Below, piece after piece: positions 28,809-49,160 of a stretch of 64,000 nucleotides of DNA (position 1 is the stretch's first letter; every line of letters begins with the position of its first letter). Source of the DNA: Minisyncoccota bacterium (GTDB lineage Bacteria > Patescibacteriota > Minisyncoccia > Phycocordibacterales > UBA1550). The notes beneath the pieces are model-generated. The model was not told where the DNA came from, made no database searches, and was given only the letters and a program-made list of their open reading frames with translations. A program made the position numbers and the translations under genes. The stretch is taken from assembly GCA_023229865.1 (NCBI GenBank), contig JALNYL010000004.1:17773-81772 (forward strand). The letters are read 5' to 3'.

Positions 28809-29660
28809 ATGAATTCATTGTTTCCACTTACGCACGGTGAGTCGTTGCCCGAGGTATATCATCTCAGTTTCAATGGTACCCACTTTGAGGTCTTTGTGAG
28901 TCAGGCATATTGGGAAAAGTTTGTGAAGTTTGCCAGCGAAACGCAATTCCCCAAGAACATGGGACCGACATATGTTCCGCCGTCTATGATCAAGCCAACG
29001 TTTGGCTTCCATGGTTGCGCAGAAATAACGCAGACCTTTGACGGACTTACTTGCCTCAAGGTTCCTGCTCTCTTGGTCCCTAATGATGAGGAGAACCCCG
29101 CAAACAACATGCGCGCATTTGGAGAAACACTTTCGAGTATCTTCATTATTCTGAATCATTTGATTTACAATTCTTTTGAAGAAAAAGAGATCTGTAACTC
29201 AGGGGACCTTCCGCAGTTGTTTGCGCTCGAGACGTTCATAAGTCACGAAGCAAGATTTCATGGAGCGGGATTTTCATTTTCGATTTCACATCGAGCACTA
29301 AAATATCTCGAGGCTCTCGGTATACGTCATCTTCCTCGAGCGATTGAGTCTATGGAACATCATTTCTTTGCTCAGTCGCGTCGCGACGACGATGATGATG
29401 ATAATAATAATAACAGGCGATTATTCCGTGGTTCTATGGAATGTCGCTTGCGGGAGTATGGGACACTTCATATGCACACCGTAGGCAACTGTGCGTGTCT
29501 TGGTGTTATGCCACGGGACTTTGGTCGTGACGGCTGCGGACTTTCGACACACAATGTAGACACGATCTCTCAGCAGTTCAATCTGCTTGTGGGTATCTCT
29601 TACGTCTGGCAGATGGTGCGTGAAGGGATTCACACGGGAGAGCCACCAAGTCTTGATTGA
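28809..29660 (+). CDS. Hypothetical protein, paralog of 29777..30613
   Basis: Shared LPEVYHL..NGTHFE, MGPTYxPPS, FGFxGCA, QQFNLLVG..VWQxVRxGI. Confidence 0.78.
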   Translation: MNSLFPLTHGESLPEVYHLSFNGTHFEVFVSQAYWEKFVKFASETQFPKNMGPTYVPPSMIKPTFGFHGCAEITQTFDGLTCLKVPALLVPNDEENPANNMRAFGETLSSIFIILNHLIYNSFEEKEICNSGDLPQLFALETFISHEARFHGAGFSFSISHRALKYLEALGIRHLPRAIESMEHHFFAQSRRDDDDDDNNNNRRLFRGSMECRLREYGTLHMHTVGNCACLGVMPRDFGRDGCGLSTHNVDTISQQFNLLVGISYVWQMVREGIHTGEPPSLD

Positions 29661-29776
29661 GGTAATATTCAAACCGCGCGCGAGTAAGTCTCGCTCGCGG
29701 TTTTTGTTTTGGCAGCTTGTATTTTATAGAACTTTTAGGTAGTCTCAAAGAAGAACATTCTTTTAAGGAGGCTACT

Positions 29777-30613
29777 GTGGAACACAATCCAGTTATTGAA
29801 AGCTACAATTTGCCTGAGGTGTATCATCTTGGTTACAACGGCACGCACTTTGAGATTTGTCTGAATCCGACCTATTGGGATAAGTACATCAGACTTGCGG
29901 GAGCAGGGACTCCCTACGCAACAAAAATGGGACCGACATATATTCCACCGTCTATCTTTGGTGGAAAGTTTGGTTTCTATGGTTGTGCTACGGTGATCAA
30001 TACCCCTGAGGGTTTCTCGTGTATCCGGATTCCTGCACTCACTGAGAAGGGTGAACAAGACTTAAAGATGTCGCTCCATACATTTGGTGCGACGCTCTCA
30101 AGCGTTTTGTTTTGCTTGAATCATCTCCTTTATCTTGCACATGATGCGAAGGAGAAGGCGATGCCAGGGGAGAACTTCCAGTTGTTTGCAGTCAGGACTC
30201 ATGTGGGCCATAACCCAGCATTTCACAAGGTGAACCTTTCGCTCGCTACCTCTCTTTTGTCGATCGAGTTTCTCACCCGCTTTGGGAGCGAGTATTCGTT
30301 TTTGGATACGACAGAAGAAATGGAAGACCACTACATCACACAAGTAGCTCGTGACGGAGAAGTGGTGCGCTTGCTCCCCAGAGCAGTGGAGTGCCATTTC
30401 TACAACTATGGCGCACTCTTCTTCCGTACGATTGGTGGCGAGAGAGTCACCCTAGAAGTCCTCCCTGAGGATTTTAGTAACAAGATGCGTTGCCTCTCTG
30501 GTCGTAATGTTGAAACCGTCCTCCAGCAATTCAACCTCTTGGTCGGGGTGGCGTCCGTATGGCAGCTCGTCCGCGACGGTATTCGTTTAGGGGAATTGCC
30601 GACTTTTTCTTGA
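29777..30613 (+). CDS. Hypothetical protein, paralog of 28809..29660
   Basis: GTG start after AAGGAGG; same motifs and a related terminator. Confidence 0.78.
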   Translation: MEHNPVIESYNLPEVYHLGYNGTHFEICLNPTYWDKYIRLAGAGTPYATKMGPTYIPPSIFGGKFGFYGCATVINTPEGFSCIRIPALTEKGEQDLKMSLHTFGATLSSVLFCLNHLLYLAHDAKEKAMPGENFQLFAVRTHVGHNPAFHKVNLSLATSLLSIEFLTRFGSEYSFLDTTEEMEDHYITQVARDGEVVRLLPRAVECHFYNYGALFFRTIGGERVTLEVLPEDFSNKMRCLSGRNVETVLQQFNLLVGVASVWQLVRDGIRLGELPTFS

Positions 30614-33024: not shown

Positions 33025-33498
33025 ATGTTTATTACTGTTGGTGGTCTTGCTGGTGGGGTTGTTCATGTTGATCGTGCTGGCGATCTGATGTTCCCCGACT
33101 GGGAACATCGCATTATCCAGCCCAGTTTTGAATCATTTGGGCCGATCGCGTTTGTGCCAAAAAGTCTTGAAACTTGGTTCCATAAAAACCAAGAGTCGGG
33201 GGTCCCCATGATCGCTGAAGACTTGCTTCTGTATCTCGAGCAAAACAAGATGCGTGAGCGTTGCCTCGGCCTCTATGAAGCCCAGGCTATTCAAAAGAAG
33301 GGAATCAGGTTTTATCGGGAACACTTCGGCAGTGAAATCGTCCTGTGCTGGAAATGTGTTATCGCCCGCAGTGATGGTTTGCGGTACGTACCATTTCTTG
33401 CGGAAGCTACTGGTCGGGAAGAAGTGGTCCTTGGTTGGTTCCCCGTTGATTGCCGCCGGCATATTGACGCCCCAGTGTATCTTTTCCCCGCACAGTAA
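33025..33498 (+). CDS. Hypothetical protein
   Basis: Promoter TTGACA(32948)-18-TAGGCT; SD GGGAGG; terminator follows. Confidence 0.7.
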   Translation: MFITVGGLAGGVVHVDRAGDLMFPDWEHRIIQPSFESFGPIAFVPKSLETWFHKNQESGVPMIAEDLLLYLEQNKMRERCLGLYEAQAIQKKGIRFYREHFGSEIVLCWKCVIARSDGLRYVPFLAEATGREEVVLGWFPVDCRRHIDAPVYLFPAQ

Positions 33499-36447: not shown

Positions 36448-37542
36448 TTACTTCTTCTCTGTGTATGAAAGGGTCATCTTCTGATCCTTTGCATCAAAGA
36501 GGGTAATCGAGAATGAGTATGTGCGTCCGAGTTCAAGTTTCTTCTTGAGCTCTTCTTCGGTACCAAACTCTGAAACGTGTACGAGACCTGCGATCCCTTC
36601 TTCAAGAGATACGAGTGCACCGTAGTTGTTGAACTTGATAACGATACCGGTTACGGTGTCGCCCTTCTTGTAACGCTTCTCAGCATCCTTCCAAGGGTTC
36701 TCCTTGAGAGCCTTGAGTGAAAGAGAAATCTTTCCATCCTTGATCTCAATAACCTTTACGCGAACCTTTTCACCAAGTTTGAACATCTTACGTGGATCAT
36801 CTACGAGACCCCATCCGATTTCTGAGATGTGTACGAGTCCTTCGATACCATCCTCAAGCTTCACGAATACGCCGAAGTCTACGATACCTGAGATTGTACC
36901 ATCGAGTTCATCGCCGTTTGAGTACTTTCCAGAAATCTCGCGCTTCTCCTTTACTCCCTGCTCCTTCTCAGAGAAGATGAGTTTGCCTTCCTTTGGAGAT
37001 GCTCCAATGATGGTTACCGCGATACGCTTTCCAATGAGCTTCTTGAGTTCGCCAAGAATCTTATCCTTGTCGCCGTCATCGATACGTGGGTAGTGCTCGC
37101 TCTTGAGCTGTGACGCAGGAAGGAATCCCTGAATCCCTTGCCACTCGATGATGAGTCCACCCTTGTTTGCCTCCTTTACAGGAAGATCAAGAGTCTTCTT
37201 TGACTTAATAGCTTCTTCAGCTTCGCTCCAGATGATTGCCTGACGTGCCTCCTTGAGCGAGAGCTCAATGTAGCCGTCTTCGTTGTTGGTGTCGACTACC
37301 TTTGCAGTAATCGTGTCGCCAATATTGAGACGCTTGATGACGTCACGAGCGTTGATAAACTCACGTCCGTAGATAATACCCGTACCGATGGCACCGAGGT
37401 TTACGTACACACATGACTTTGCAACGCTGATAACAGGTCCCTCAACAAGTGAGTCATTCTCAGGCAATGGTTTTACATCAGCCATGAGTTTACCCATAAG
37501 TGACAATGGGGCCTCTACGATTTCTTCAATTTCTTTTTTCAT
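36448..37542 (-). CDS. rpsA: 30S ribosomal protein S1 (short, four S1 domains)
   Basis: NKGGL..GFLPASQL, DFGVFV..GIEGLVHISE repeats. Confidence 0.88.
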   Translation of the reverse strand: MKKEIEEIVEAPLSLMGKLMADVKPLPENDSLVEGPVISVAKSCVYVNLGAIGTGIIYGREFINARDVIKRLNIGDTITAKVVDTNNEDGYIELSLKEARQAIIWSEAEEAIKSKKTLDLPVKEANKGGLIIEWQGIQGFLPASQLKSEHYPRIDDGDKDKILGELKKLIGKRIAVTIIGASPKEGKLIFSEKEQGVKEKREISGKYSNGDELDGTISGIVDFGVFVKLEDGIEGLVHISEIGWGLVDDPRKMFKLGEKVRVKVIEIKDGKISLSLKALKENPWKDAEKRYKKGDTVTGIVIKFNNYGALVSLEEGIAGLVHVSEFGTEEELKKKLELGRTYSFSITLFDAKDQKMTLSYTEKK

Positions 37543-37740
37543 GTAACAAAAAATCCCATCAAACCTACATAATTGTAGTACAAGCGGGATGTGTGAACCT
37601 TGGTTTTCCCCCGAACGGTCGAGTCAGGATGGGGGAGGGTTAGCCTTGGAACTGCTTGTGATTAACCCGTACAATATACGGGAAATCAGGCAAAAAGTAA
37701 AGGGGGCGATTCAGCGAATCGCCCCCTTGGGGGTTGGTCG

Positions 37741-37827
37741 TTACGGGGTCGGCATTTTATCAGCCGATTTCCTTGTGGGGAGTTCGTCGTGGATTGGCCC
37801 GGGGTCATCCTCGTTGAGCGGGTACAT
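37741..37827 (-). CDS. 28-aa micro-ORF MYPLNEDDPGPIHDELPTRKSADKMPTP
   Basis: AAGGAGGT shortly upstream of the ATG; terminator at 37700-37728. Confidence 0.5.
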   Translation of the reverse strand: MYPLNEDDPGPIHDELPTRKSADKMPTP

Positions 37828-37889
37828 ATTGAACCTCCTTGAAAATTAAAGGGCTCCGCGAGGAGCCCTTGGGTTGCGGCATTGGCCGG

Positions 37890-37940
37890 TTAGACGAAGT
37901 TGAGACCTTCGGGATTCCACGAGGGGTCGCGGGTTCTCAT
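37890..37940 (-). CDS. 16-aa micro-ORF MRTRDPSWNPEGLNFV
   Basis: AAAGGAG SD; followed by GCCGCAACCCAAGGGC and a terminator. Confidence 0.45.
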   Translation of the reverse strand: MRTRDPSWNPEGLNFV

Positions 37941-38106
37941 AGGCGTTCTCCTTTAAAGTACAGCTGGGTTAAGGGATTTTCTTAAAGTCACCTCACGGTG
38001 GTTTAAGGGTTCATCGGTAGACTGGATCACCATCCTTTCCCTGGGTTGAAACTAACTAAAGCATAGCAAAGGTAGTTAAATTTGCAAGAACTTTACCGTA
38101 CTTGTT

Positions 38107-38340
38107 TCAGAAAGCCGCGCAATCTATATACATTTGCCTAGTCCACATCATGCGCCGCAATCGGACCGTATGCTTTGTAGCATCCTCGTGCTTGCGGTAG
38201 GCTGTGACTTCATCTCCGCTTGGGTCATGAATGACCCAATCCTTGTGACTGCAAGTTTCAGTGTGGCACCTGCAATAGTTCTGGCGAACATGGAACCTGC
38301 GCGGGGAGTCAGGGTCTGCTGGTAGTAATTCAAGGCTCAT
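38107..38340 (-). CDS. 77-aa Cys/His-containing hypothetical protein
   Basis: Promoter TTGCAG-16-TAGACT; SD GAGGAG; CxCHxxxCxH. Confidence 0.65.
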   Translation of the reverse strand: MSLELLPADPDSPRRFHVRQNYCRCHTETCSHKDWVIHDPSGDEVTAYRKHEDATKHTVRLRRMMWTRQMYIDCAAF

Positions 38341-38462
38341 CTTGCTCTCCTCTTGTCTGTTAATGGTTGAATCCTTTTGCAGTCTAGCAAACTATGTTCT
38401 TACTGCAAGTTATTTTTGATAAAGAAAAACCTCGCAACATGCGCGAGGTTAAGGTAGGGGAA

Positions 38463-38536
38463 TGGAGTCCTGTACAAGAATCGAACTTATGACAGTGCTT
38501 TTCAGGGCACTTACGTTGCCACTCCGTCAACAGGCC
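38463..38536 (-). tRNA. Atypical tRNA-like gene (GAA in an 8-nt anticodon loop, encoded CCA)
   Basis: GGCCTGT/ACAGGAC acceptor with one mismatch, D-arm ACG-GAGTGGCAA-CGT, AGTGC-CCTGAAAA-GCACT, T-arm ATAAG-TTCGATT-CTTGT, ends TCCA. Confidence 0.7.
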
Positions 38537-38629
38537 TTGATTCCTCCACTAGCTCTATTTTATCAAAGGGAAAGGAAAAGAAAAAGGGCCCCACGTCGTT
38601 GTGGGGCCCTGGGTTGCGGCCGGAGCCGA

Positions 38630-38680
38630 TCAGGTTGTGATCTTGATACTGTTGGTACCATCGCGGATGAAGTTCATCAT
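38630..38680 (-). CDS. 16-aa micro-ORF MMNFIRDGTNSIKITT
   Basis: GAAAGGAGGTG SD; followed by GCCGCAACCCAGGGC and a terminator. Confidence 0.45.
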   Translation of the reverse strand: MMNFIRDGTNSIKITT

Positions 38681-38758
38681 CCACCTCCTTTCTCTCTGTT
38701 GACCGGTGTGCGTCATTGTGACGCGGGGTTGATTGGCGTAGGGGCCGGCATGCTGGAG

Positions 38759-38890
38759 TTAACCGGCGCCCAGCACCATGGCCGCCAGGCCGCCGTGGGT
38801 GGTGGAATTGCCGCTGCAGCGCGTGATCAGATAGCTCTTGGTGTTGGCGCCGATCGTCGGGCCAGCAGTCGCGGGCATGGTCTTCTTCAT
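38759..38890 (-). CDS. 43-aa micro-ORF MKKTMPATAGPTIGANTKSYLITRCSGNSTTHGGLAAMVLGAG
   Basis: TAAGGAGGT SD; G/C-rich third codon positions. Confidence 0.55.
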   Translation of the reverse strand: MKKTMPATAGPTIGANTKSYLITRCSGNSTTHGGLAAMVLGAG

Positions 38891-39074
38891 GTGATACCTC
38901 CTTATGGAAAGAACAGCGTTGTCCTCCGGCAAAAGCGCGGAGGGATGGATGTCCTGGCGGGCGAATGGCGCGGCGACTTCCTCGTTAGAAACACTGGAAG
39001 CGGCCGATAAGCCCTTGCGGTCGTGGGCGAGTCAATCCCGCCACAGAGCCGTACGTGCCAACCAGAACAAAAGC

Positions 39075-39102
39075 AGTATAGCAGGTTATAAAAATTTGTC
39101 AA
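39075..39102 (-). promoter_or_regulatory. Near-consensus sigma70 promoter driving the micro-ORF island
   Basis: TTGACA-16-TATACT with extended TG. Confidence 0.75.
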
Positions 39103-39210
39103 CCCCGTTAGAGGTGAATACTCGCTGCGCTTCACTCGCGACCTCTAACGGGGCTTGCCCCACAGTTTGGATTAGAACTTACGGTCGTTTACAACCTACT
39201 TCTAACGGGC
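39103..39210. repeat. CCCCGTTAGAGGT...ACCTCTAACGGGG inverted-repeat element plus a degenerate second copy
   Basis: 13-bp perfect IR at 39103-39153; second TTAGAA...TTCTAACGGG at about 39172-39208. Confidence 0.7.
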
Positions 39211-39292
39211 CAGGCCCCGGCGATTCTGGAACCACGTGTCTTTATTGCGCCCAACGTTTCGCTCCTTTAAAAAATCTGCTACAATACCACCT

Positions 39293-39922
39293 ATGATTGT
39301 TACATATTACGGAAAGCAGTTTTTCAAGATTCAGCTCGGGGATCGCACGATTGCGTACAACCCTATTGGCAAGGATTCAAAAGAGAAAGGTTCACGCTTT
39401 GGCGCGGACATCGTCCTTTCCTCGCTTCGTCATGCAGACTTCAACGGCGCCGATCAGTGTGCGTACGGTGAGCGTCAGCCGTTCGTAATCTCTGGTCCCG
39501 GCGAATACGAAGTAGGAGGAATCTTTATTAAAGGTTTCGGTACTGACACCACATACGACAAGGATAAAAAGATCAACACAGTTTTTTCTGTAATGTTTGA
39601 AGGTATCAACCTCTGCTTCCTCGGCTCACTCGCGACCGCTGACTCACTCTCGCGCGAGGTAAAAGAAGGTCTCGGAGAAATCGACGTCCTCTTTGCCCCT
39701 ATTAGCGGGGGAGACGCACTCAATCCTGCCGACGCGCACAAACTCGCACTCGCGCTTGAGACAAAGATTGTTATTCCTATGGACTTTGAACACGCAAAGG
39801 GTTCACTCGAAACCTTTATTAAAGAAGCTGGGGCAAACGCAGAGACAATGGAGAAGTTCACATTTAAGAAGAAGGACCTCGAAGGGAAGGAGGGCGCCGT
39901 CGTTGTTCTTAAGGAGGCTTAA
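39293..39922 (+). CDS. MBL-fold metallo-hydrolase-like protein
   Basis: ITYYG..FKI, GPGEYEVGG, IDVLFAPI.G, IVIPM; degenerate His motif. Confidence 0.8.
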   Translation: MIVTYYGKQFFKIQLGDRTIAYNPIGKDSKEKGSRFGADIVLSSLRHADFNGADQCAYGERQPFVISGPGEYEVGGIFIKGFGTDTTYDKDKKINTVFSVMFEGINLCFLGSLATADSLSREVKEGLGEIDVLFAPISGGDALNPADAHKLALALETKIVIPMDFEHAKGSLETFIKEAGANAETMEKFTFKKKDLEGKEGAVVVLKEA

Positions 39923-45344: not shown

Positions 45345-45722
45345 ATGACTCAAAAAATCACCACTACCGCAATTGCAGCAGCTATTCTCTCTCTCCCTCT
45401 CTTGTCTGCTGCTCAAGTCGGAATCCCTTGCAATGGTCCTGATTGTACCTTCGACTCGCTTATCCAGCTAGTGAATAACATCATTAAGTTTCTTATGTTT
45501 GGCGTAGCCGTCCCTCTCGCTGCTATTGGCTTTATGTTTGTGGGGGCAAAAATGGTTTTGTCATCTAATAAAGAGTCGGCAAAGACAGAAGCGAAGGAAA
45601 GTTTTGGGAATATTGTGAAAGGTTTCCTTATTATGCTTGGGGCGTACGTTGTGGTAAAAACAATCGTCTACTCATTTATTACTGATGAACAGAAGACTTT
45701 TATGGGATTCCTGTTTCAATAA
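45345..45722 (+). CDS. VirB2/TrbC-like pilin
   Basis: Signal peptide, two hydrophobic helices, AK..F..IVKG. Confidence 0.7.
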   Translation: MTQKITTTAIAAAILSLPLLSAAQVGIPCNGPDCTFDSLIQLVNNIIKFLMFGVAVPLAAIGFMFVGAKMVLSSNKESAKTEAKESFGNIVKGFLIMLGAYVVVKTIVYSFITDEQKTFMGFLFQ

Positions 45723-45742
45723 TTAGGAAGATAATATACAAT

Positions 45743-46246
45743 ATGAATACTATGAAAAAGATACTTGGTGGACTCGTGGTTCTAGGGGTGTTTTTAGGAG
45801 GGACTTCTGTCGCATTGGCTGTTCTGCCTTGTGCCGCTGTCCCTAGCCAGTATAAAAATGTGTGGACAGACCTTCCTGCTAGTGCGCAGCAATCTTACTA
45901 CGACATCTATTGTTCTCCTGGCACCGGCTCTACGGGGGCATCCGGCTCTACTGGTTCGGGGGCTACCTTGTCCGCAAATACGAAGTTGCAAAATCCCATC
46001 AAGTATTCAACTTTTTCTGAGTTTGCTGCAGCAATAACCAAAACAGCTGTTCAGGTCCTCCTTCCATTCATCGTCCTTGCCTTCATCTACTCAGGCTTCC
46101 TCTTTGTGAAAGCACAGGGTAACGAAAAAGAGCTCGAAGAAGCAAAGCAGGCAATCTGGTACAGTCTCATTGGTGCCTTCATTCTCCTTGGGGCGTGGGG
46201 ATTTGCGCAGATTATTAGTCAGACGGTTTCAACAATTACCCAGTAA
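45743..46246 (+). CDS. VirB2/TrbC-like pilin
   Basis: LQNPI, IYSGFLFVKAQGN...L.EAK..IWYSLIG. Confidence 0.75.
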   Translation: MNTMKKILGGLVVLGVFLGGTSVALAVLPCAAVPSQYKNVWTDLPASAQQSYYDIYCSPGTGSTGASGSTGSGATLSANTKLQNPIKYSTFSEFAAAITKTAVQVLLPFIVLAFIYSGFLFVKAQGNEKELEEAKQAIWYSLIGAFILLGAWGFAQIISQTVSTITQ

Positions 46247-46252
46247 TCTACT

Positions 46253-46537
46253 ATGGACTTCAAAGAATTTGTTAATTTTCTTGTTGGCACACTTATCAAG
46301 CCACTTTTCTCGCTCTTTTTGGGTGCTGCAGTAGTCTTCTTTTTGTGGAATATGATGGGGGTCATTCAGAAGAACGATCAACCAGAAGAGCTCGCAAAGA
46401 TGAAAGAAAAGGCTATTTGGGGGATTATCGCTATCGCGGTGATGGTCTCAATGTGGGGATTGGTCAACTTTTTTGCAGGGTCACTCAGGCTGACCAATAC
46501 TCCTCTTGACCTAGAGCGTTTCAACCAAACCTTGTAG
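46253..46537 (+). CDS. VirB2/TrbC-like pilin
   Basis: WGIIAIAVMVSMWGLVNF. Confidence 0.72.
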   Translation: MDFKEFVNFLVGTLIKPLFSLFLGAAVVFFLWNMMGVIQKNDQPEELAKMKEKAIWGIIAIAVMVSMWGLVNFFAGSLRLTNTPLDLERFNQTL

Positions 46538-46620
46538 TTTTCTCGGGGGTTTCGTATAATTAACAGATACGATCAATTAGTATTCGTACATCATAATTAA
46601 CATTTAATAAATTAATAAAC

Positions 46621-46968
46621 ATGAAAAAAGTTATTGTATTGGGTGCCTTTTTTGCCCCATTTATCGCGAGTGCTCAGATTGCCCAGGGGGCAAGTACGGT
46701 TCCTGGTCTTATTGCGTTCTTGAAGGACGCGCTTAGCACCGCTACGGTCCTTATTCTTGCAGCTGCAGTTGTATACTTCCTTTGGAACGTATTCGGCTTC
46801 GTTATGGCAGCAGGGGACTCAGATAAGCGCGCAGAGAAGCAGAGCGGTATTATCTACGGCGTTATCGGTATCGCGGTGATGGTATCTATCTGGGGCCTCG
46901 TAAACTTCCTTACGTCTTCAGCAAAGCTCGACACAACAACACGTACAGCTCCATCACTTTCTCTCTAA
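46621..46968 (+). CDS. VirB2/TrbC-like pilin
   Basis: YGVIGIAVMVSIWGLVNF with signal peptide. Confidence 0.72.
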   Translation: MKKVIVLGAFFAPFIASAQIAQGASTVPGLIAFLKDALSTATVLILAAAVVYFLWNVFGFVMAAGDSDKRAEKQSGIIYGVIGIAVMVSIWGLVNFLTSSAKLDTTTRTAPSLSL

Positions 46969-46994
46969 TCCACGTTTCTTAAACCAACACCATT

Positions 46995-47237
46995 ATGAAC
47001 ATTATGCAGAGAATCAATGAGGCTATTCTTCAACCAATAGTTTCACTCCTTATGGCAGCGGCCGTAGCATATTTCTTGTTTGGTGTTATGAAGTTTGTGA
47101 AGGATCAGGGGAGTGAAGAATCTCAAGTAGAAGGGAAGAAGCATATGATGTGGGGGATTATTGGTCTTTTTATTATGGTGAGCGTTTGGGGGATATTGAA
47201 CTTTATCAATTCCTTCGTTATGGGATTTTCTCAGTAA
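46995..47237 (+). CDS. VirB2/TrbC-like pilin
   Basis: GKKHMMWGIIGLFIMVSVWGI. Confidence 0.72.
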   Translation: MNIMQRINEAILQPIVSLLMAAAVAYFLFGVMKFVKDQGSEESQVEGKKHMMWGIIGLFIMVSVWGILNFINSFVMGFSQ

Positions 47238-47353: not shown

Positions 47354-48139
47354 TTAATACTGGAGCTTCACGGAGACTAACACCTCGGGGGCATACTTTG
47401 CTGCGACCCCCGCATGAAGCATTCCATTAAAATGTCCGATTTTCGTGCCACAGTCTTGGAACCACCCCTTTGATTGGTCGTTTTCCCAAAGAAACATCCT
47501 CCCGCCAGGGCAGTAAATATCAAACACGACTCCCGTTGGGATTGGGGGAAGCTCGACATACTCATCTGGTGGGCCATCAACAATGACGGACTCGTCGTCG
47601 GGGTTGCCGTTGTTATCCTCAGCGAGGGTGTAGACGTCGGGATCGAATTTCACCCAATGACTTTTCACCTCGTGAGTGACCTCCGTGCTTGCCGCCGGCG
47701 ATGAGCTGCCGAAGGCCTCCTTGAAGAAGGTGGGGTGATTTGCTGCTCTCACACTAGCCTTCATGTCTTTCCATGTTTGGTAGACAGGTTCGGGGAGGAT
47801 GAGACCAATGGTGGCTATTGCGAAATAGCCAACCACCATCACTTTTGTTATATCGGAGACCTTGCTTCCCGTGAACAAGAGCCAGAGCCCCATGATGTGC
47901 AGGGGGATAACGACGACGGCGCCAATCACGATAAACATGCTGGAATCGTCGGGGAGCAGGTAGGCGATGCAGATGGTCACAATAAACAGGATAATCATTG
48001 CCATCCAGTTCCTGCGAACCTTTTCTTCATCCTCCTTTTTTATTTCTTCAGGAGTTGATGTGGTGGGCTTTTGTTTCTCGTTAGTCTTGGAGGATGATTG
48101 AGGCACTCTCCCGTTCATTGCATCAACTTTGCGTTGCAT
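47354..48139 (-). CDS. Three-TM membrane protein coupled to the SPFH gene
   Basis: Overlaps the SPFH stop; SD AAGGAG. Confidence 0.7.
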   Translation of the reverse strand: MQRKVDAMNGRVPQSSSKTNEKQKPTTSTPEEIKKEDEEKVRRNWMAMIILFIVTICIAYLLPDDSSMFIVIGAVVVIPLHIMGLWLLFTGSKVSDITKVMVVGYFAIATIGLILPEPVYQTWKDMKASVRAANHPTFFKEAFGSSSPAASTEVTHEVKSHWVKFDPDVYTLAEDNNGNPDDESVIVDGPPDEYVELPPIPTGVVFDIYCPGGRMFLWENDQSKGWFQDCGTKIGHFNGMLHAGVAAKYAPEVLVSVKLQY

Positions 48140-49160
48140 TTTTGTGCTCCTTATTGTGAGTTATGGCGAGAGGCAGTCTTTCTCCAAGGCTCAATACATC
48201 GCCTTTGAAGTTTGATACCGCCCCTGCGTCAATTTCGCGATGAAGAATTTCCATGCCGCCATCGTAGCCAGCAGCAGTTCTCAGCCGCGCATCAAGTGCT
48301 TTGGCTTGTGCTACCCCGAGTGTCTCAATGCCGCGTGCTTTTTGTACAGCCGCATCTGCTTCGAGTCTCGCGATTTCAACTGCCGTAGTGGCCGCTTTTT
48401 CTTCTTCGCTTGCGCCGACAAGTTCAAAACTTACGAAGTCAACCTTGTGAACAGCAACCCCGAAGGTATCGATCACTCCCAGCGTACTGCCAGAAGTTTT
48501 ATTCACCTTTTCGATGTCAGAAGAGAAAGAACTCCCTTCACCTTCTTTATCGAGTGCACGGAAGTCGTCGTATGTTCTGCCACGTGCAAAATCTGCAATG
48601 GCCCCCTTCACGGTTGCGTTGGCGTTATTAAGCCATTTCCCCTTGAAGATAAAGACAAGTTTGATTGGGTTCACGACTCGGTATGTGACATTGACGAGGA
48701 GATTGATTTTGAAGTTTCCCTTGAGATCAACCCCCTCAACAAGAATGGGGTAGGAAGACAAGAAATACAGCGAATTCACATACTCCGACTTGCGGACGAT
48801 ATCAAAACCTTCTTCGTCTTTCGACGAATCGCCTTTAGTCAACTTGTCCCAGTCAAAGTGCCACACATGGATTTCTTTGAGCGGATACAGCAAGCTCACG
48901 AGAAACACGCCGAGAATGCTGAAGGGGCGAGAAAAGTTACTGTTCTCTCCTTCGGCAATGAGGCCAGTTTTGTAATCGTAATGGTAACCCGTCCCCTTAA
49001 GGTTCGGGATTACTTTTTCACACGACTCGCCAGCCACCACAAACTTGATCTCCCCGGTGGGGACATAACAAGTTTGTTTTTCGTAACGTGCCCCGTAGAG
49101 GAGCCAGACACAGAAAGCAATTACTGCAACAACCAAAAGTCCAACAATAAATGTGAACAT
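48123..49160 (-). CDS. SPFH/Band 7-like membrane protein
   Basis: N-terminal TM, VTYRVVNP, FGVAVHKVD, Ala/Glu-rich coiled coil; SD AGGAG. Confidence 0.7.
   Translation of the reverse strand: MFTFIVGLLVVAVIAFCVWLLYGARYEKQTCYVPTGEIKFVVAGESCEKVIPNLKGTGYHYDYKTGLIAEGENSNFSRPFSILGVFLVSLLYPLKEIHVWHFDWDKLTKGDSSKDEEGFDIVRKSEYVNSLYFLSSYPILVEGVDLKGNFKINLLVNVTYRVVNPIKLVFIFKGKWLNNANATVKGAIADFARGRTYDDFRALDKEGEGSSFSSDIEKVNKTSGSTLGVIDTFGVAVHKVDFVSFELVGASEEEKAATTAVEIARLEADAAVQKARGIETLGVAQAKALDARLRTAAGYDGGMEILHREIDAGAVSNFKGDVLSLGERLPLAITHNKEHKNATQS

Follow-up and report, generated by a model that had tools for sequence, protein, structure and literature searches.

The window, a stretch of 64 kb, lies in a genome of 950 kb and 97% completeness (G000; 771 genes as called within this analysis) of Ca. 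Yonathbacteria (Paceibacteria), an ultra-small, symbiotic organism. G and L numbers denote relatives' genomes and locus sequences, respectively. Between rpsA and a divergent MBL-fold gene, 1.4 kb of the minus strand form an island for which an earlier note had claimed ORFs of 43, 16, 77, 16 and 28 aa, each behind a strong Shine-Dalgarno (SD) sequence, together with three promoters. All five ORFs are present, their SDs pair with the canonical anti-SD at -8.7 to -13.6 kcal/mol, and the three promoters have a -35 and an extended -10 element (Table 1). The stretch contains 6 ATG ORFs with dG ≤ -8, namely the five ORFs and an internal one judged spurious, while shuffled sequences have a mean of 0.52 and none of 300 reached 6. 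The island reads as P1, leader, 43-aa ORF, first 16-aa ORF and terminator; a tRNA-like gene between a -10 and a terminator of its own; P2 with the 77-aa ORF; and P3, leader C, second 16-aa ORF, weak terminator, 28-aa ORF and terminator. Most units had been described as ending in intrinsic terminators; four were found, one with a weak U tail (37870-37849), but the 43-aa and 77-aa ORFs have none of their own. No convincing plus-strand promoter was seen inside the island, and the SDs are predicted to be mostly paired within the folded transcripts.

Table 1 Features of the island, its flanks and the SD-led lipobox genes of G000
Feature	Position	Strand	Remarks
Flank rpsA	36448-37542	-	S1 domains; promoter 37673-37693; SD-less structured leader
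28-aa ORF	37741-37827	-	SD 37834-37840, -12.6 kcal/mol
Second 16-aa ORF	37890-37940	-	SD 37948-37953, -8.7 kcal/mol
Leader C	37941-38053	-	16S 3'-end complement 38020-38038; tetraloop hairpin 37980-38007; GTACTTT box 37955-37961
Promoter P3	38060-38087	-	Conserved in 5/5 aligned loci
77-aa ORF	38107-38340	-	SD 38347-38352, -9.1 kcal/mol
Promoter P2	38381-38408	-	Upstream of 77-aa ORF; read directly from the sequence
tRNA-like unit	38428-38565	-	-10 38557-38565; terminator 38428-38450
tRNA-like gene	38463-38536	-	Rfam tRNA 35.3 bits; missed by ARAGORN
First 16-aa ORF	38630-38680	-	Second cistron of unit A; SD 38684-38690, -11.0 kcal/mol
43-aa ORF	38759-38890	-	SD duplex -13.6 kcal/mol to canonical anti-SD
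Unit A structured leader	38891-39068	-	GTTCTTT box 38908-38914; SD 38897-38903; partly conserved in G026; 5' end inferred from promoter position
Promoter P1	39075-39102	-	11/12 consensus matches; same promoter type heads relatives' cassettes
Intrinsic terminators	38610-38585, 38450-38428, 37870-37849, 37728-37700	-	
3' module copy 1	38575-38628	-	4-bp hairpin, C/A linker, terminator 38585-38610; z -4.6
3' module copy 2	37865-37888	-	Followed by terminator 37849-37870
Flank MBL-fold gene	39293-39922	+	Divergent; PF13483; near-leaderless, SD-less
SD-led lipobox genes	C38:7538-7618; C48:4995-6773; C32:11435-12604; C33:4904-5542	-; -; -; +	G000; one of 26 aa

The peptides were rightly held to be unlike type I toxins, as the best 15-residue hydropathy is ≤0.81 and none has a hydrophobic stretch of membrane length. 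In Rfam the island gave only a weak tRNA match, and no antitoxin. The three island ORFs scanned have no Pfam family, the 43-aa ORF matched only itself in protein databases, and the 77-aa ORF matched nothing there and is an orphan; together with P2 it is the least secure part of the island. The 28-aa SD-led ORF is present at the same place in G026, which also has a unit orthologous to that of the second 16-aa ORF. One RNA run (share 0.05) covers rpsA-like pieces only, with no coverage over the island. Next to the island, rpsA has a genus-wide structured leader (37543-37693, minus strand) with alternative pairings, ACAAGC/GCTTGT or a terminator-like ATCCC/GGGAT hairpin; it has no Rfam match and is a candidate S1 autoregulatory element. 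Just upstream of P1 lies a REP-like palindrome with 13-nt arms (39103-39153), and similar stretches occur in G026, G022 and others.

A 3' motif shared by the two 16-aa ORFs had also been proposed. The 11-nt match is weak by itself, since an 11-mer repeat occurred in 101 of 500 shuffles. What makes the motif real is its setting: each copy begins 9 nt past a stop codon, which marks the two as duplicates, and combines the 3' arm of a 4-bp hairpin with a C/A linker and the first terminator arm. As a common sequence module it does not hold: the genome has four exact matches, of which the other two lack a terminator, and the motif is found in 2 of 25 genus spacers, so that only the architecture of hairpin, C/A linker and terminator is shared. 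A genome-wide GCCGCAACCCA module was rejected on these grounds. Among SD-led genes no 3' k-mer is shared besides terminator tails.

Overlooked so far was the tRNA-like gene. It has a tRNA-Cys-like body, U73, an encoded CCA and an 8-nt anticodon loop CCUGAAAA containing GAA, and is enclosed by an outer stem of 9-10 bp. The 8-nt loop and the combination of a Cys-like body with GAA depart from a canonical tRNA, while the cloverleaf is kept (39/40 cells paired). The gene is common to G000 and G026 only; no such element was found in 400 other genomes of the order (G026 being outside that set) or in viral contigs, and the sole metagenome match is identical to G026 and therefore not independent. Three compensatory stem changes separate the two copies, a covariation that is suggestive only, because, with just two sequences, 54 of 500 shuffles score as high. 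The gene resembles +1 frameshift-suppressor tRNAs such as sufJ and mistranslating tRNAs. As in the sufJ type, an extra base stands 5' of the GAA anticodon in an 8-nt loop; unlike these, the gene is natural, has a Cys-like body with U73 and occurs in two genomes, and a suppressor-like activity is putative.

The earlier note had assumed that the organism's own ribosome reads the SDs of the island. This assumption fails, as the own 16S rRNA has no anti-SD: past helix 45 it ends in GAATCAATTCA, and CCTCC is absent. Therefore, the meaning of the whole island changes. Against the own 16S tail the same five SDs reach only -1.1 to -3.6 kcal/mol. An anti-SD is present in 0 of 50 16S 3' ends inspected in the genus and the order (16S was unassembled in 21 of the 61 genomes of one survey set, and the L082 end is truncated by its contig edge), and the sole regex flag (L062) sits ~20 nt into the spacer, beyond the 16S end. 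In G007 (L082-L084) two of the three 16S ends are unlike the genus type and were probably binned from other Paceibacteria; all three are without anti-SD. Core-gene leaders in G000 are A/T-rich or nearly absent, and the SD core motif occurs in 7/358 codon-adapted genes vs 55/413 poorly adapted ones; SD spacing peaks at 4-6 nt. In relatives rpsA is SD-bearing in 1 of 33 cases and the MBL gene in 0 of 22. A 16S without CCTCCT has been published for a subgroup of Parcubacteria (Tsurumaki et al. 2022; PMC9297842), and both marks of that subgroup, a 16S tail without CCTCC and core genes without SD, are found here. The accessible part of that report expects no SD helices and does not mention a conserved SD-led gene class.

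Leader C carries a longer complement. Its 5' end forms a duplex of 17-20 bp with a canonical 16S tail, at -31.5 to -34.5 kcal/mol, vs -5.8 to -8.1 kcal/mol with the own 16S tail (4/4 genomes tested in both cases); two further copies in the genus look degenerate. The motif was also found in 68 viral contigs, and 7 of 20 viral loci tested resemble the CC2171 sRNA (Rfam RF01867), all below the gathering score, while CC2171 had no match in positions 37500-39400 of the window at E ≤ 10. Leader C opens with the same extended 16S complement as CC2171 and the widespread phage and bacterial GAAAGGNGGTGATCCAGT element; the difference is that the bearer of the window cannot pair with it. A conserved ORF behind the extended complement was sought by eye, and none was found. 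The idea of a ribosome-sequestering RNA, put forward for the whole array, may thus apply to this one leader, judging from its predicted pairing.

Across the genus 27 genomes were examined, 19 of them with a complete MBL-rpsA spacer (G008 and G018 are identical across it). An SD-led small ORF occurs in 16 of these spacers and none in the other 3, and the number of cassettes per spacer varies from 0 to 5. SD-led small ORFs number 32 in sense, 23 in antisense and 10 in shuffled spacers; since antisense is also above shuffle, the sense count alone is modest, and homology is the stronger sign. Family A, to which the 43-aa ORF of the window belongs (MKK..TAGP..GGLA..G), has 17 aligned syntenic members with invariant M and P and the consensus MKK..A.AGP...G, and family C often ends in EGWED/G. 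Members of both keep recurring behind the same type of promoter, with an SD and a terminator. Of the four-fold sites in the flanking MBL gene 46-73% differ across the genus, and SDs, frames and cassette layout of the island persist over about 1-2 neutral changes per site. Of 29 ORFs picked by motif, an SD core precedes 27, and none pairs more weakly than -5.6, although this set is not blind, because the motifs first came from SD-led ORFs.

Close pairs differ by in-frame gaps, and base use is periodic by codon position. The frames are thus kept in relatives, as had been anticipated, though the peptides drift: mismatches at the three codon positions are nearly even (104/92/118), which points to a weak peptide constraint. 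The codon choice of the island is foreign to the genome, with CTG making up 0.49 of Leu codons vs 0.01 in adapted genes, GGC 0.63 vs 0.24 and ATC 0.89 vs 0.48. A family A profile run over 251 genomes of the order gave strong matches in G000 and G025 only, and four weak ones (E 0.007-0.03). Outside the genus 4 of 27 MBL-rpsA spacers hold an SD-led ORF, one of which is csrA. Hence the proposed array, with cassettes for micropeptides or dual-function RNAs, is supported as far as architecture, SD, frame and codon periodicity are concerned, but a common 3' sequence module has no support beyond two genomes. In relatives (L018:2925-3035, L023:2530-2650, L029, L019, L022 and L035) a conserved stem and, by eye, a possible H-type pseudoknot extend from the family A stop codon to the terminator; RNAalifold, applied downstream of six family A ORFs, recovers the first stem as well as the terminator, and the feature is absent from the window. 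The spacer of G014 (L034) has two structured RNA units with promoter and terminator and no clear SD-led ORF.

The island belongs to a class that extends over the genome. In G000, 73 of 771 starts pair at ≤ -8 vs 32 control positions, and about 58 SD-led genes meet a stricter definition. Most of them stand alone, one gene per unit with a terminator of its own, and 22/58 have a full -35 (TTGAC) vs 28/599 other genes. A Pfam family was assigned to 17 of the 56 scanned, including DHFR, ThyA, dCMP deaminase, nucleoside deoxyribosyltransferase, 5' nucleotidase, NUDIX, ADP-ribosylglycohydrolase, gp30.3/NADAR, GGDEF and phosphatases; one member is a recombinase. Their distribution is patchy, and GC3 is 0.55 vs 0.48. 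The window holds two more SD-led accessory genes, at 48123-49160 (minus) and 33025-33498 (plus), and of 6 loci scored with homologues of the former, 4 are SD-led. At 28809-30613 (plus) lies a tandem pair of paralogous orphan genes (283 and 298 aa) without Pfam family.

Between G000 and G026 (859 kb read) a dG ≤ -7 is kept in 18 of 25 SD-led accessory pairs (72%) vs 17/473 other pairs, and is found in 8 of 139 poorly adapted SD-less pairs; without filter 23 of 44 SDs are retained. Neutral decay at the observed four-fold divergence of 49% would leave ~15% of the SDs, and 15-34% are expected at 50-30% change. The letters of the SD vary although its pairing is preserved, and some G-run variants no longer contain GGA. 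Of the G026 homologues 25/31 are syntenic with the same core neighbour, and SD-led pairs have a median protein identity of 51% vs 84% for others. Turnover is fast, with any match for 42/71 members in G026 and 12/71 in G025, where SDs are kept in 5 of 16 unfiltered pairs. The thyA trio kept its SDs in 3/3 cases between G000 and G025; this SD-led trio with dCMP deaminase and thyA lies at C33:60143-63105 of G000. Across the order thyA is bimodal, with 9/30 at ≤ -7 and most others SD-less or near-leaderless. Its tree requires 5-7 changes of the SD label, SD copies tending to long branches, and as it has no anti-SD-bearing outgroup, exchange with such donors may also have occurred.

A recurrent cargo elsewhere in the order is csrA. 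CsrA scored above the cut-off in 29 of 401 genomes of the order, the unpublished genome G275 included, which enters no other result. Of 27 csrA loci 24 have an SD (two being the same gene; one further locus is without alignment) vs 1 of 17 ORFs next to csrA. A complete cassette of promoter, SD, csrA and terminator occupies L341:2615-2900 (minus), within the MBL-rpsA spacer of a different anti-SD-less Paceibacterium; its protein is Gammaproteobacteria-like, and the nearest named csrA relatives outside the group are Gammaproteobacteria. In L377-L404 the Paceibacteria CsrA comprises this type and a second one, which we take to be Planctomycetes-like, with variable C-terminal tails and as a possible clue to the host.

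Lipoprotein maturation requires Lgt and LspA. Neither was found in 5/5 genomes searched (control searches positive in 10/14), so that maturation would be possible only in a bacterial host. A lipobox regex had 11 matches in three genomes. All 6 credible genes are SD-led, five at ≤ -8.2 and one at -5.6; the 5 matches without SD were set aside, two being antisense to called genes, one an uncalled frame of 24 aa, and the remaining two (20 and 52 aa, in G026) judged by eye. G000 further encodes a VirB4/TraG-like ATPase, and the genes of T4SS pilins, proteins that the symbiont must export by itself, include SD-less ones; five tandem genes of T4SS-type pilins lie at 45345-47237 (plus) of the window.

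The signal thus follows SD spacing and pairing rules that only foreign ribosomes can read, and therefore we read the class as host-addressed mRNA. That the island and the SD-led class are mRNAs delivered to the host and translated by its ribosomes is, in our judgement, somewhat more probable than all other readings together, and from sequence comparison the island likely holds the smallest members of such a class. The symbiont polymerase would transcribe the cassettes from strong promoters, and the short, terminator-capped RNAs would cross into the bacterial host. A T4SS is a candidate conduit, because most copies in Patescibacteria have no relaxase and G000 has the VirB4/TraG-like ATPase. The account of these systems, in the part accessible, describes a contact-dependent channel of unknown cargo and proposes no RNA (PMC12102498); the ATPase and the pilins are shared by G000, and the tie to the cassettes is that of a candidate. 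Host ribosomes are predicted to bind and translate the exported RNAs, and larger members (ThyA, DHFR, dCMP deaminase, CsrA, lipoproteins) may act in the host as effectors. With their 16S-complementary leader, loosely constrained peptides and aberrant tRNA, the island units might work largely by occupying the host translation apparatus, a suggestion we regard as rather doubtful. Chances seem about even for the full picture, in which anti-SD-less Paceibacteria inject SD-tagged mRNAs by the dozen, along with ribosome-binding RNAs and an altered tRNA, and the host makes the parasite's effectors. Hosts with attached Paceibacteria show a low ribosomal FISH signal, according to the accessible part of one study (PMC10936435); such a signal agrees with interference at the ribosome without being specific to it, and the hosts concerned are archaea, associated with other families of Paceibacteria. 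Against host-addressed mRNA speaks the lack of a general 3' motif among SD-led genes that could serve as shared export signal, and the fast turnover, which is as for imported genes, also counts against it. So do the recombinase in the class, the antisense excess of small ORFs, the weak peptide constraint, the predicted pairing of the SDs within the transcripts and the 3 spacers without an SD-led small ORF.

The best-surviving alternative, though an unlikely one, is that the symbiont's own machinery recognises the purine-rich motif by means other than an anti-SD, be it an RNA-binding protein, ribosomal or not, or a trans-acting adaptor RNA, and that the motif marks a regulon of accessory genes. 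The cassettes do use native promoters and terminators, and CsrA, a GGA reader, exists in the order, but neither G000 nor the 6 genus genomes searched yielded it, a search for bS21 found none, and pairing is kept even in variants that lose GGA. Within 250 nt behind helix 45 the best match to an SD is -9.6 vs -17.3 for a real anti-SD. Bacteroidetes keep strong SDs on few genes (rpsU/rpsR) of an SD-poor genome for regulation (PMC7797042, as far as accessible). They retain the anti-SD, occluded by bS21, bS18 and bS6, and their SD covaries with the own 16S, whereas here the anti-SD is lost, the SD matches a foreign 16S and the marks of such autoregulation, an own matching anti-SD and SDs on ribosomal protein genes, are missing. 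A reader of the symbiont's own would also leave the lipobox genes without Lgt and LspA and the foreign codons unexplained.

Host ribosomes could instead meet the message by another route, either by transcription of chromosomal DNA in the host cytoplasm or by entry of host cytoplasm into the symbiont, which we consider improbable. The excess of TTGAC among SD-led genes would suit it, as would a boxA-like box in 13 of 31 island leaders, though Rho was not found in G000. The cassettes, however, lie one by one between core genes, no transfer origin was seen, the usual lack of a relaxase (PMC12102498, in the part accessible) speaks against DNA transfer, and imported ribosomes alone would not mature lipoproteins.

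About as improbable is that the SDs are relics on shuttling morons, whose source would be Paceibacteria that have an anti-SD, phages or other bacteria. High turnover, higher GC3 and patchy distribution agree with this, as do the gammaproteobacterial relatives of csrA and the viral contigs with the leader C motif; it is countered by persistence at the same locus across the genus, by SD retention far above the neutral expectation in largely syntenic genes, and by strong family A matches in genus members only. Phage morons and host-takeover genes are single-gene units of promoter, SD, ORF and terminator. The cassettes resemble them in this layout and in cargo (ThyA, DHFR, dCMP deaminase, gp30.3/NADAR, CsrA), but they are chromosomal and largely syntenic, and the ribosome of the bearer cannot use the SD.

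Very improbable is a leader-peptide attenuator or cis-regulator of rpsA or a type I toxin-antitoxin array, for which the layout of promoter, ORF, hairpin and terminator directly upstream of rpsA and the RAGP of several family A peptides, similar to the SecM stall motif, would speak, since rpsA appears to have its own conserved promoter and leader, also in spacers without cassette, cassette number varies, the peptides are not hydrophobic, Rfam gave no antitoxin, and the AGP, at residues 4-11, is probably too close to the N-terminus to arrest translation as SecM does. In SecM/RAPP-type arrest peptides the motif sits close to the C-terminus of a chain that can span the ribosomal tunnel; in family A, AGP/ADP is conserved but N-terminal, and stalling is putative.

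We found no account of SD-led genes in anti-SD-less Patescibacteria, or of mRNA delivery by them, in a literature search that excluded most subscription journals. Even if export is wrong, selection on SDs without an anti-SD requires a reader of another kind. If host-addressed mRNA is true, this would be cell-to-cell delivery of mRNA effectors between prokaryotes, and a phage-like strategy, in which the host makes the proteins, would be shown in a cellular organism. The SD would mark the effector set of each parasite and hint at its host, so that the effector genes of hundreds of uncultured parasites could be listed from sequence alone, and codon use together with captured regulators, CsrA for example, would allow a guess at the hosts. 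The finding bears on how Patescibacteria exploit their hosts and on what their relaxase-poor T4SS may carry.
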